From an uncultured candidate division Zixibacteria bacterium (GTDB lineage Bacteria; Zixibacteria; MSB-5A5; GN15; FEB-12), in the NCBI GenBank assembly GCA_963735035.1, contig CAVTJJ010000003.1, positions 608,001 through 672,000 of the forward strand: a stretch of DNA of 64,000 nucleotides. The letters run 5' to 3'. The notes beneath the pieces were generated by a model that was not told where the DNA came from, ran no database searches, and saw only the letters and a list, made by a program, of their open reading frames with translations. Position 1 is the first letter of the stretch; every line of letters starts with the position of its first letter. Both the position numbers and the translations under genes were made by a program. Of the stretch, positions 10,242 through 51,710 are shown piece after piece.

Positions 10242-10345
10242 CCCAGGGCTTGCCCTGGGATTCAGTCTGGTGGCTCACCCGCTTGCGGGTGGGTTTGGAT
10301 GCTATGCCCTGGTAACACGTGCCCGGCAGATGCCCACATCTGCCG
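10242..10345. repeat. REP-like palindromes, including an empty IS110 target site
   Basis: CCCAGGGCTTGCCCTGGG (10242-10259), GGTGGCTCACCCGCTTGCGGGTGGG (10269-10293), GGCAGATG.CCACATCTGCC (also near 14170 and 32247). Confidence 0.8.
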
Positions 10346-11363: not shown

Positions 11364-11424
11364 TGATATGGCCGGGGTGGCCCACCCGCTGCTATGTACT
11401 GTGTCAAGGGCTTTCTGTTCAGGC

Positions 11425-11570
11425 ATAGGACTCGAACCAGTCTGCTATTCGTGGTCGCTGACTGGCAGCGCCACAGGCAATGTATCCGCTCGTGACCTGG
11501 CGAGGCAGCAGACTTGCGGACGTGGTCTCGGTTGGCCCGAGCCACAGCGGGTGGGTCGCTGTTCTCGCGT
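11425..11570 (-). ncRNA. Putative bridge/seek RNA of the IS110 element (target- and donor-binding loops; ends approximate)
   Basis: Two similar hairpins (GTGGTC..GCCACAG at 11451 and 11522) flanked by segments matching the target (11546-11555, 11513-11519) and the donor (11442-11448). Confidence 0.8.
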
Positions 11571-11602
11571 TAGCTTGGTACGGTTCCGACTCCTTGGTTA
11601 TC

Positions 11603-12661
11603 TTAGGCGGCCGCACACGGCTCATAGGCAACGTTATCAAGCAGAACCCGCCTGACTGCCAAGACCAGTCGTCGAGCTACCGCCACTATGGCTCGTTTGC
11701 CGCCGGCACGTTGCTTGATCCGGTTATAGACCAGTTGTAAGTGTGGGTCCTTCCGAACGGCAATCCAGGACGATTCCACTAACAAGCCCCGAAGATAGCT
11801 GTTGCCCGTGCCGGTAATCCGACCCATCCGGACATGATCACCGCTGGAATACTGCGAAGGTGTCAGTCCCACATAAGCCGCCAATTGCTCAGCCCGTCCA
11901 AAACGACCGACCTCATGCAATTCCAACAGCAGAGCCATCGCCGTAATAACCCCTATGCCGGGAACGCTACTTAACAGCCGAACTCGATCACGATACTGTG
12001 GCAGTCGTGACAACTCCCGCAACAGTCGTGTCTGCAACGCCAGCTGGTTACTTACCAGATCGTACATCTCCAACAACCGCTCGTAGCTCGCCTGAGCCCA
12101 GACATCTGCCAAACACACCTGTCTCAGACGCTCTAATAACGGACCGGTCCACCGACCCGTCCCACTGCACACTGAAATACCATATAAGGCCAACTCCGAT
12201 TTGATCCGACTCTGAAGACGTACCCGATCTTGAACCAATTGACGACGACGACGTAAGACCTCTCGGTGACCCCGCTGACTCTCATCCGGAACCCAGACCT
12301 TCTTCAACAACCCTAACGACAGCAACCAGGCCAGCTTCCGGCTATCCCGCTTGTCCGTCTTCACCCGATTACCGTAGGCCATCGGCACCAAGCTCGGCGG
12401 CGTTACTACGCACTGACCACCCCACGCTACCACACAGTCGTGCAGCCAAAAACCAGAAAAACCCGCCTCGTAAACCACGGACACACACCCAGGATCATAC
12501 CGATCCAGCAAACACCGCAAAGACGCCCAATCCCCGTTAATGCTGCCACAGAACAGTTCCACTTCTAACGTCCTCACCGTGACAAACCACTGACGCTTGT
12601 GAACATCCACGCCAACAAAAACAGCACTTCCCACTTCCGCTCCAACTTCGTACCTTCTCAT
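11603..12661 (-). CDS. IS110-family recombinase/transposase
   Basis: DEDD RuvC-like motifs VGVDVHK, YEAG, KTDKRDS; Transposase_20 motifs SVPGIG, LAAYVGLTPSQYSSG, AIVAVARRL; AGGAGG RBS. Confidence 0.95.
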   Translation of the reverse strand: MRRYEVGAEVGSAVFVGVDVHKRQWFVTVRTLEVELFCGSINGDWASLRCLLDRYDPGCVSVVYEAGFSGFWLHDCVVAWGGQCVVTPPSLVPMAYGNRVKTDKRDSRKLAWLLSLGLLKKVWVPDESQRGHREVLRRRRQLVQDRVRLQSRIKSELALYGISVCSGTGRWTGPLLERLRQVCLADVWAQASYERLLEMYDLVSNQLALQTRLLRELSRLPQYRDRVRLLSSVPGIGVITAMALLLELHEVGRFGRAEQLAAYVGLTPSQYSSGDHVRMGRITGTGNSYLRGLLVESSWIAVRKDPHLQLVYNRIKQRAGGKRAIVAVARRLVLAVRRVLLDNVAYEPCAAA

Positions 12662-12821
12662 CTGAGCCTCCTGTTCTAAGGATCTATCGTTGTCTTCAGA
12701 CCACGATACGATACCTTGTCCGAACAGAGGCTCAAATCACGAACAGTATCATAGTTACTTGCGGGTGGGGGTGGATGAGTTGACTATTTTTATAGCTGGC
12801 TGATCTTGTGGGGGGTGGTTG

Positions 12822-12920
12822 CGTCAGGTCCTGCCCGCCGCAGGCGGGTGTGACCTGACGCCCCATCCGTCACCCTGAGCTACGCCTGCCCTGAGCTTGC
12901 CGAAGGGTCGAAGGGTGACG
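12822..12920. repeat. REP-like palindromes, one with a nested copy
   Basis: CGTCAGGTCCTG..GTGACCTGACG and GTCACCCTGAGC[..]GTCGAAGGGTGAC; the related unit CCCTTCGACAGGCTCAGGG lies at about 1078-1096. Confidence 0.75.
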
Positions 12921-12972
12921 ACGAGAGACAATGTCGAAGCCGCCCGAAGGGGTTTGGTTTTGATCTACAAAC

Positions 12973-45052: not shown

Positions 45053-46051
45053 CTAAGTAAGTTTAAGATTGGGAATCGCGTTGGCGATCAGCTCACCGGG
45101 GCCGTACTTCTCGAAACTGTAGAATCCGGCGGCGGCGATCATCGCGGCGTTGTCTGTACATAGTGACAGCGAGGGGTAGAACAAACGGCCTCTTCGCGCT
45201 TCAATTTCTTCACGCAGTCGCTGGCGCAGACGGCTGTTGGCGGCGACACCCCCGGAGATAGTCACATGACGCACGCCGGTGGCCTCAGTGGCGCGAACGG
45301 TCTTGGTTACCAGCACGTCAACGACCGCTTCCTGAAACGAGGCGGCGATATCCGCTTTCTTCTCGGCAAATTCATTCGGATCAAGTTTGTTCAGATAGAG
45401 TGAGACCGCGGTCTTCAAACCGGAGTACGAGAACTGGAAATCGTCTTTCATGACCGCGCGTGGAAACCGAAAGTAGCGGGGATTGCCGGTCGAAGCCAGC
45501 TTGTCGAGAGCTGCCCCGCCCGGATAACCAAGCCCCATGAGTTTGGCGACTTTGTCGAAAGCCTCGCCGGCGGCATCGTCGCGCGTACGACCCATCACAA
45601 TGTATTCCCCAAAGGCTTTGACTTCAACGAGCATGGTGTGTCCGCCGGACACGATCAGGGTCAGATGATGTTTGTCCAGTTCCCGGTGTTCGAGCATGTT
45701 CGCCGCCAGATGGCCTTCCAGATGGTTGACCGGTACAAACGGGATCGAGCGGGCGTAGGCCAGTCCTTTGGCGAAACTCAATCCAATCAGGAGCGGGCCG
45801 ACGAGTCCGGGTCCCATGGTCGCAGCGACCAGGTTGATCTGTTCAAGCGTGACTCCGGCTTCTTGCAGAGCCTGCTGATAAATGGGGACGATTGCTTTGA
45901 TGTGTTCGCGGCTGGCAACTTCGGGGATGACGCCGCCGAAGCGGGTGTGTACCGCCTGTGACAGGATAACGTTGGACAGGATGTCGCGTCCATCGCGAAC
46001 CACCGCCGCCGACGTTTCATCGCATGAGGTTTCAATTCCCAGAGTTAGCAT
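45053..46051 (-). CDS. tsaD: tRNA t6A37 threonylcarbamoyltransferase TsaD
   Basis: GIETSCDET, HLEGH, VSGGHT, DDAAGEAFDK, CTDNAAMI. Confidence 0.97.
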   Translation of the reverse strand: MLTLGIETSCDETSAAVVRDGRDILSNVILSQAVHTRFGGVIPEVASREHIKAIVPIYQQALQEAGVTLEQINLVAATMGPGLVGPLLIGLSFAKGLAYARSIPFVPVNHLEGHLAANMLEHRELDKHHLTLIVSGGHTMLVEVKAFGEYIVMGRTRDDAAGEAFDKVAKLMGLGYPGGAALDKLASTGNPRYFRFPRAVMKDDFQFSYSGLKTAVSLYLNKLDPNEFAEKKADIAASFQEAVVDVLVTKTVRATEATGVRHVTISGGVAANSRLRQRLREEIEARRGRLFYPSLSLCTDNAAMIAAAGFYSFEKYGPGELIANAIPNLKLT

Positions 46052-46970
46052 CGGGATTAGTTATGACGAGTACGGAATCGCTGGAGAGCGACTTGAACTT
46101 GAAACCGGGGGGACAATCGAAACGGACTTTGGCTCGTCCGCCGGCGCTGATCGTGCGATGATCCACCGAGAGGGTCAGGGCGTTGGGAGTGAGTCGGTCA
46201 ATTTCATCGGGCGGCCCGGTCAATTCAACTTTCAATTCGGTCGGGTCGGTGCGGACAGCAATTCCCCCCGGTGTATTGAACACCTGCACGGGGATATGCT
46301 CGAATACCCGCGTTTTTACCGGGAAGACCGGAATCGTCACCGACACCGATTCCGGTTCCACTCGGAATCCGTAACCTTCCGGGCAAATAGTCGGTACGGT
46401 AATAGTCACCGGATTGCGCATTGAACCGAGTTTCTTGGATGCAGTGCGGATGGTGTCAACTTCCTGTAGCCGCGAGCGCGGGCCGATAAGCGTGGCCGTC
46501 GACGGCGCAATCTGCAATTGCTGACCCACGGCAAAACCATCATCAGCTTCGGTCTCAAGCGCCGCCGTTATGGGCACTTGTTTCTTGCCCTCGACGTCTA
46601 TTTCCAGGCGAAGAACCTTGGGCGACACTATTTCCTGAAGCGTAACCTCGGTGGTGGGGTGCACCAGAGATGTATTCTGCGTGCTTAGATTGACGTTGAA
46701 TCGTCCGGCCCGGAACTGTCCGGCGTTGATTTCGACACCTTCATCCCGCCACTTTCGCCGGAGGAGTTGTTTGCCCGACGCCAGGACCGACACGCGAAGC
46801 GAGTCCGGAGGCGCCTCCGCCAACACCAGTCCATCACTCAGGATGACTTGAGTAATGGGCAATATGATTTCATGGTTGTAGATCTTCTCGGTTTCGACGT
46901 GCAGCCAGACGAGCAGGCCGAGACCGAAAGCCGTTATCTTGAGCCAGAAATTGTTGAACAGCCACTTCAT
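46032..46970 (-). CDS. CdaR/YbbR-like protein
   Basis: NNFWLKITAFGLGLLVWLHV N-terminus followed by three YbbR-like beta domains (P..V.L.GP). Confidence 0.8.
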   Translation of the reverse strand: MKWLFNNFWLKITAFGLGLLVWLHVETEKIYNHEIILPITQVILSDGLVLAEAPPDSLRVSVLASGKQLLRRKWRDEGVEINAGQFRAGRFNVNLSTQNTSLVHPTTEVTLQEIVSPKVLRLEIDVEGKKQVPITAALETEADDGFAVGQQLQIAPSTATLIGPRSRLQEVDTIRTASKKLGSMRNPVTITVPTICPEGYGFRVEPESVSVTIPVFPVKTRVFEHIPVQVFNTPGGIAVRTDPTELKVELTGPPDEIDRLTPNALTLSVDHRTISAGGRAKVRFDCPPGFKFKSLSSDSVLVITNPDANSGN

Positions 46971-51515: not shown

Positions 51516-51710
51516 GTCGGGTTTACGGAGTCACGAGCGACGCGAGTGACGACAAACCCGACACCGAGATCGACAGACAAGGGGCAGACGAGGACGTCTG
51601 CCGCCCACATAGCCCTATCCACCCCACCCGCCCCCAATTTTCCGCATTGTAGACCAGCCCTGATCATCGTATATTTGTGCAATCCCACCCGCAAGCGGAT
51701 GGGCCACCCG
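51511..51710. repeat. REP cluster including a near-perfect empty IS110 target (inverted)
   Basis: GTAGGTCGGGTT..AACCCGACA, GGCAGACGAGGACGTCTGCC, CCCACCCGCAAGCGGATGGGCCACC (51684-51708). Confidence 0.8.

Follow-up and report, generated by a model that had tools for sequence, protein, structure and literature searches.

The DNA analyzed here is a 64,000-nucleotide stretch (the window) of the genome of an uncultured candidate division Zixibacteria bacterium (GenBank assembly GCA_963735035.1, contig CAVTJJ010000003.1, positions 608,001 to 672,000 of the forward strand). It carries a 1,369-bp insertion sequence (IS), at window positions 11391..12759 on the minus strand (one copy of the core dinucleotide, 12758-12759, counted in), that splits a repetitive extragenic palindromic (REP) sequence. 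We regard it as very likely, with a probability of about 0.9, that this is an intact IS1111-type element of the IS110 family provided with a two-module guide RNA, i.e., a bridge RNA or long seekRNA. Because the match between guide and target within this single sequence is moderate and its fold is ordinary, the case must rest on the relatives of the element and on its other copies.

Insertion site and copies in the genome

Both junctions of the element can be read directly. Their plus-strand sequences are GGTGGCCCACCCG-CT|GCTATG on the left, with CT at 11389-11390, and CATAGTTA-CT|TGCGGGTGGG on the right, with CT at 12758-12759; excising 11391-12759 (the element plus one CT) therefore gives the restored site GGTGGCCCACCCGCTTGCGGGTGGG, a 9-bp hairpin with the CT within its loop. 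An earlier reading of the window (the original prediction) had proposed that this excision restores a REP-like site around CT, which the junctions bear out; it had also equated the restored site with the REPs at 10269-10293 and 51684-51708, and here the agreement is close and not exact, each of the two REPs matching the restored site at 24/25 positions. The left half of the split REP (11376..11390, plus strand) consists of GGTGG, CCCACCCG, and one CT core and reads on the transposase strand as the right flank, AG-CGGGTGGG. The right arm, TGCGGGTGGG (12760..12769, plus strand), corresponds to the left flank CCCACCCGCA on the transposase strand. The duplicated core is AG on the transposase strand and CT on the plus strand. 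The CT core and "left target" of the original prediction thus stand as a plus-strand view and do not carry over to the transposase strand, where the core is AG and that "left target" is the right flank.

The genome holds five full-length copies of the element plus one partial copy at a contig end, and no other IS110-family elements were found in it. Insertion is specific for both site and orientation: 5/5 full copies have the same 15 nt on the left and the same 10 nt on the right, sit in CCCACCCG-CT-TGCGG as expected from the original prediction, and lie in one orientation relative to the GGTGG flank, with outer flanks that are mutually unrelated. Four of the full copies are 100% identical, which indicates recent movement, and the element has probably been active recently; the fifth is 1,371 bp long and has two single-base insertions. 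The partial sixth copy (G000:C3:988512-989185) is 99% identical over its left half, and its outer flank is paralogous to that of the copy at C4:3747-5115; it could stem from an old segmental duplication or represent a strain variant. An orthologous empty site was sought in relatives, where the candidate was a same-genus genome with the neighboring msrAB-like gene; this gene is only 71% identical there, and neither a REP nor common synteny was found downstream of it in that genome.

The ends of the element carry subterminal inverted repeats, read directly as ACAGTACATAG at the right end (11392..11402, minus strand) and CTATGATACTGT at the left end (12743..12754, minus strand), the latter lying 3 nt (TAA) inside the core. 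The two repeats match at 11/12 positions with one indel and start 1 and 3 nt inside the ends. The transposase gene is flanked by non-coding stretches of 212 nt downstream versus 98 nt upstream.

The guide RNA and its covariation with target and element ends

The structured core of the predicted RNA spans 141 nt (11428..11568, minus strand); it has a consensus structure with compensatory changes and scores 90.4 bits against a covariance model. It is made up of a 69-nt target module (11500-11568) and a donor module (11428-11496), both on the minus strand, as are all the RNA features that follow. In the target module, the 5' side of the loop, ACCCACCCGCU (11546..11556), pairs with AG-CGGGTGGG of the transposase strand, i.e., with core plus right flank, and the 3' target guide, CCGCAAG (11513..11519), equals the left flank CCGCA plus the AG core and pairs with the bottom strand. 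The inner hairpin P2 of this module, GUGG-CUCGG...CCGAG-A-CCAC (11522..11545), has three foot pairs in which 93.8% of the alignment cells are paired; its distal part is variable, and the model is limited to the foot. In the donor module, the 3' donor guide, AUAGCAG (11442..11448), equals the AG core preceded by the terminal 5 nt of the right end, and a short, weak stretch, UUGC (11477..11480, in the loop 11475-11485), would act as the 5' donor guide. The inner hairpin P4, GUGG-CGC...GCG-A-CCAC (11451..11474), has 92.3% of cells paired, with 5/7 pairs changed on both sides. The target and donor loops have a common geometry and a common inner-stem foot. The guide words of the original prediction are all present at the minus-strand positions it gave them (CCCACCCGCT at 11555-11546, CCGCAAG at 11519-11513, and ATAGCAG at 11448-11442), and so is the inner stem it had seen in both loops, each hairpin beginning GTGG and finishing (A)CCAC.

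Homologous DNA came from 80 metagenome loci, with transposases 51 to 69% identical to the present one, and from one genome of the same order (66%). The set comprised 82 loci, 73 of which had at least 215 nt past the stop codon for alignment of the 3' ends; the covariation counts, read on the transposase strand, draw on 59 to 66 homologous 3' ends. As the original prediction implied, guides follow their own flanks among these homologues. Between the 5' segment of the target loop and the right flank, 5.80 of 9 positions pair, compared to 2.81 ± 0.18 under permutation (n = 61 non-redundant), and between the 3' segment and the left flank, 4.48 of 5 positions are identical, compared to 2.08 ± 0.18 (n = 44). 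In the donor guide, the base before AG is the terminal base of the element, whether G, C, or T, in 65 of the 66 homologues. A mutual-information map of all loop columns versus all flank and end positions ranks the same diagonals at the top, with right-flank positions +1 to +5 tracked by columns 25-21. An AG core is present at the right end in 65/66 homologues and at the left end in 53/54, and the start of the left end, AGTAACTATG, is almost invariant.

About 20 distinct 3' guide words occur in the set, each agreeing with its own flanks. The nearest subgroup (L063, L092 to L096, and L098) has REP-like palindromic targets of the form CCCAC(C/A)GCAAGC(G/T)GTGGG, and other homologues, whose targets are not REPs and look quite different, have matching words in the same places of the loop. 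In the closely related pair L102/L103, the 5' target guides differ at a few positions and the right flanks change in step, which is to all appearances a natural, small-scale reprogramming. Another closely related pair, L095/L097, has near-identical flanks, and these are better fitted by the L097 guide.

The helices around the loops are likewise kept in the homologues. RNAalifold, run on 59 distinct sequences (alignment A2), returned two stems, the outer one of the first module and the inner one of the second, with compensatory changes in 14/19 pairs. The full model totals 31 pairs in four helices (P1, the foot of P2, P3, and P4); 91.1% of its 1,822 cells are paired, versus 80.4% for shuffles and 34 to 49% with the partners slid, and 21 of the 31 pairs have changed on both sides. 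Pairing in P1, P2, and P4 is kept through compensatory changes. For P3, an alternative register joining columns 102-107 with 161-166 was tried and paired in 39.8% of cells; the register 100-110 with 161-173 was preferred.

The covariance model, built over 146 positions from the homologous ends along the lines of the original prediction, recovers the RNA. In the genome it finds the five copies at 81.7 to 90.4 bits and no orphan RNA copies; a match at window 45924-46058 (18 bits, E = 0.72) was taken as chance. The 81.7-bit score is that of the 1,371-bp copy (G000:C4:851861-853231), whose two insertions are equivalent to window position 11509, in the 3' strand of P1, and to about 12684, in the left-end leader. 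Loci outside the model-building set were also recovered, among them L143, L122, L157, and L101 at 111 to 134 bits. In the homologues the matches fall downstream of the transposase gene, and weaker matches lie downstream of transposases only 33 to 39% identical. No family for this RNA was found in Rfam 15, where a sub-threshold match to an archaeal snoRNA family was taken as chance. IS1111-family transposases are reported to co-purify seekRNAs in a short form of 70 to 100 nt and a long form of 145 to 170 nt (PMC11187229), sizes near those of the 69-nt target module and the 141-nt core seen here.

On the donor side, the 7-nt identity diagonal of the 3' guide stands at 0.98 to 1.0 in homologues. 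The 5' side of the donor loop is conserved among them: UUGC can pair with G-TAA, made up of the core G and the 3 nt that open the left end, one of the pairs being a G-T wobble, and UU(A/G)C versus core G plus TAA is the only junction-core diagonal kept in at least 96% of 47 homologues. More extensive pairing of this 5' side of the loop, whether with the left end or with the inverted repeat, was sought and set aside, no diagonal of more than 4 nt being found across the 47 homologues. The donor read by the RNA would be about ATAGN-AG-TAA, between the 11- to 12-bp subterminal inverted repeats. Immediately 3' of the donor guide (A2 column 160, window 11441) is a base that agrees with the first right-flank base in 35 of 57 homologues, compared to a mean of 21.1 and a maximum of 32 in 5,000 permutations; in this copy it is a mismatch (A against C). 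This base resembles the handshake guides described for IS621 (PMC11208158).

Transposase and relation to known elements

The sole long open reading frame (ORF) of the element (11603..12661, minus strand) encodes the 352-aa transposase. The protein matches Pfam domains PF01548 (1.4e-12) and PF02371 (Transposase_20; 2.4e-25) and scores 226.7 bits against NCBIfam NF033542, "IS110 family RNA-guided transposase," for which the curated cut-off is 140. Together with the IS1111 hallmarks given in PMC11187229, this upholds the assignment, already made in the original prediction, to the RNA-guided IS110 transposases with IS1111 architecture. The catalytic motifs are intact: the candidate residues D19, E65, D103, D106, and S273 do not vary across 23 aligned homologues, and S273 sits in GLTPSQYSSG, the IS1111 motif GL-P----SG. 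Compared with the active-site residues of IS621 (D11/E60/D102/D105/S241-G242; PMC11208158), the D-x2-D spacing and P-x4-SG agree, the correspondence being mapped by motif and not by structural alignment. Among Protein Data Bank (PDB) entries, similarity is detectable in the C-terminal domain only, to ISCro4 and IS621 (E of about 1e-11); the IS621 match (PDB 8WT6) covers residues 219-346 with E = 1.5e-11. Catalysis would be carried out by a 352-aa DEDD/serine recombinase.

Of 8,000 candidates scored, 2,665 are protein relatives at E ≤ 1e-3. The closest are 91, 88, and 85% identical and the next at most 69%; they are mostly 352 aa long and lie on short metagenome contigs. Representative genomes and plasmids yield about 27 to 52% identity on the best segments, bar the one same-order genome mentioned above, the best plasmid relative showing 36% identity over 88% of the length. 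Identity to the best named relatives reaches about 36 to 45% at most, and relative to these, in a comparison that has ISfinder outside its scope, it is plausible that the element is a hitherto undescribed one. The clade may be among the published IS1111 covariance models in the supplement of PMC11208160.

IS1111 elements are characterized by subterminal inverted repeats of 7 to 17 bp, a longer downstream non-coding region that carries the RNA, the GL-P----S(t)G motif, a transposase of 330 to 350 aa, and an RNA in which the top-strand match stands 5' of the bottom-strand match (PMC11187229). The present element has the subterminal repeats, the downstream RNA, the motif, and the strand order, ACCCACCCGCU (complementary to the top strand) preceding CCGCAAG (identical to the top strand); its 352 aa are 2 residues above the quoted range. 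It also has the features of the IS110 family as a whole, namely, a DEDD/RuvC-like N-terminal domain and a Transposase_20 domain with D/E/D/D and the Ser-Gly loop, and site- and orientation-specific insertion with a repeat consisting of the core dinucleotide only. Bridge RNAs are predicted in 93% of IS1111 elements (PMC11208160).

Among described systems, ISPa11 of Pseudomonas aeruginosa, an IS1111-family element, likewise occupies a fixed position and orientation in a REP hairpin and has its RNA, reported in short and long forms, downstream of the transposase, together with subterminal inverted repeats (PMC11187229); it differs in host phylum and target sequence. ISEc11 (IS1111; Escherichia coli), which has been reprogrammed experimentally, agrees with the element in its 3' non-coding RNA, top-before-bottom order, and circle-junction promoter, and differs in its non-REP target and its protein of 339 aa; the function of its long RNA is left open in the report on it, whereas the second loop of the present clade covaries with the donor (PMC11187229). 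IS621, of the IS110 group, also has two internal loops that read both strands with the core dinucleotide inside the guides, the DEDD plus serine active site, and a REP target (PMC11208158). IS621 differs in having its RNA upstream of the gene, the opposite strand order, and no long subterminal repeats. ISPpu9 and ISPpu10 of Pseudomonas putida share the REP targets and the conserved AG at both termini, the terminal AG dinucleotides being required there for circle formation, and differ in their assignment to the IS110 group and in having their own promoter and an antisense RNA (PMC12288879).

Mobility, REP occupancy and competing explanations

Joining the right and left ends creates a promoter. 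An outward -35 box, TTGACA, at the right end (11402..11407, minus strand) pairs across the circle junction with the -10 box TATGAT of the left end (12748..12753, minus strand), which is without a -35 partner while integrated; the joint reads TTGACA-17-TATGAT. In the homologues, a -35/-10 pair at 17 to 18 nt is seen in 40 of 48 distinct junctions, and the same junction promoter is reported for this family (PMC11187229; PMC12288879). No σ70-like promoter was found in a search of the integrated copy. If the element works as ISEc11 and IS621 do, its ends would be joined on excision so that the TTGACA-17-TATGAT promoter drives transposase and RNA; the RNA, once transcribed and processed, would form a complex with the recombinase, and this complex would then exchange strands at the core. 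The two target guides would jointly specify 15 nt at the hairpin tip of a single REP subfamily, with the orientation fixed by the single AG/CT in the hairpin loop. The donor loop would read the circle junction, AUAGCAG with the right end plus core and UUGC with the core G plus the left-end TAA.

Several observations weigh against an RNA-guided element of this kind. The minimum-free-energy fold of the single sequence is close to that of shuffles (z = -1.06; 31/200 fold at least as well), and 320 of 20,000 shuffles (1.6%) produce a word of at least 10 nt that the 212-nt end has in common with the restored site. P3, the outer donor helix, is the weakest of the four (75 to 92% paired) and is mismatched in this copy, and the 5' side of the donor loop gives only 4 consistent pairs, one of them a wobble in this copy. 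Among the homologues, the right flank is matched at three or fewer of 9 positions in 9/61 and the left flank at three or fewer of 5 in 4/44, and the permutation controls ignore kinship among homologues. Seven of the 73 loci were omitted from the counts, their right ends being unalignable; in a later covariance-model search the RNA was found in 4 of 6 of these (L131, L154, L155, and L157), with no match in L112 and L168, L169 lying outside the search. In the genome itself, the flank of the partial copy is off the consensus target at two positions and fits the 3' target guide at 3/5, and no circle or empty-site joint was found in the short, low-depth contigs from four DNA runs.

Some of these points, together with the state of the genomic REPs, could mean that the element, albeit a genuine RNA-guided IS, is now stranded, with all perfect sites used, the integrated state promoterless, and no further movement. 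We see this as a possibility to be taken seriously, if not one we favor. The target REP family consists of many dispersed copies of a short imperfect palindrome, 37 uninterrupted loci within 5/25 mismatches plus 5 occupied ones. Under the 15-nt guide footprint, none of the 37 intact REPs is perfect; a single mismatch is seen in 10 of them, two in 20, and at least three in 7. Occupancy is thus 5/5 for perfect sites versus 0/37 for imperfect ones (Fisher P of about 1e-6; small sample). The want of an intact perfect footprint, the integrated copy without a σ70-like promoter, and the circle and empty-site joints not found in the low-depth contigs all speak for stranding. Against it stand the recent movement indicated by the four identical copies, the tolerance of some mismatches by IS110-family elements (PMC11208160), and the possibility of read-through from flanking genes.

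The REPs of this genome fall into at least three subfamilies. Beside a candidate RAYT locus, at G000:C3:164900-165800, the REPs belong to a sibling family, GGTGCCCCAGCGCTTGCGCTGGGA, with the same GGTG-hairpin-CTTG layout; the family targeted by the IS was looked for at that locus and not found. A third subfamily, CCCACCTGC...GCAGGTGGG, has a compensatory pair that differs from the target and so places one mismatch under each target guide. To the right of the element, window 12815-12925 contains two more hairpin-forming stretches, GCGTCAGGTC...GACCTGACGC and GTCACCCT...AGGGTGAC, the latter being a widespread repeat, as judged from a summed contig depth of 125 in sediment metagenome run X2.

The occupancy pattern and the donor-loop data can be combined into a broader proposal, which we put forward only tentatively and on balance doubt: the element would belong to a large, deep-branching environmental clade of IS1111-like bridge recombinases with proteins of 352 aa, whose second loop reads the donor by way of ATAGN-AG-TAA and a handshake-like base and whose RNA is symmetric (146 modeled positions, 141 nt in this copy) and absent from Rfam, and in this genome all perfect REPs would have been filled and the 37 with at least one mismatch spared. 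If true, this would be single-mismatch discrimination in nature, with copy number limited by target supply, and the compensatory stem changes of the three REP subfamilies could partly reflect escape from the element.

It is unlikely that the RNA guides target choice only, the second loop being a scaffold or processing structure and the protein reading the ends through the subterminal inverted repeats. Some published data are in line with such a division of labor: in ISEc11 a short 82-nt seekRNA with the target-recognition matches is enough for transposition, and end recognition by IS1111 elements is called unresolved in the same report (PMC11187229). In our data, the 5' side of the second loop pairs consistently with the junction at just 4 positions, and the inverted repeat gives AUAG a second possible partner, CTAT in the left end. 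Against this, in all but one of the 66 homologues the variable base of AUAGN-AG is the one that ends the element, whichever of three bases that is; the two loops are alike in geometry and inner-stem foot; and in 35/57 homologues the base that comes after the donor guide agrees with the first base of the flank. That the matches are a captured REP fragment or chance, with the protein alone recognizing the REP hairpin, is very improbable: the target is G+C rich and of low complexity, the 10-nt common word turns up in 1.6% of shuffles, and the single-sequence fold is unremarkable, yet homologues with non-REP targets bear matching words at equal loop positions and the helices around the loops covary.

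As an RNA-guided IS1111-type element, the IS is a well-supported but ordinary member of a system first described in 2024, and it leaves the bridge/seek RNA picture unchanged. What it adds is a cleanly decodable RNA-guided recombinase from an uncultured lineage, along with a working covariance model of an RNA family absent from Rfam 15 and a set of some 60 relatives reprogrammed in nature. The occupied versus spared REPs form a small natural data set on specificity, and the covariation of the donor loop bears on whether the long RNA of IS1111 elements reads the element ends.

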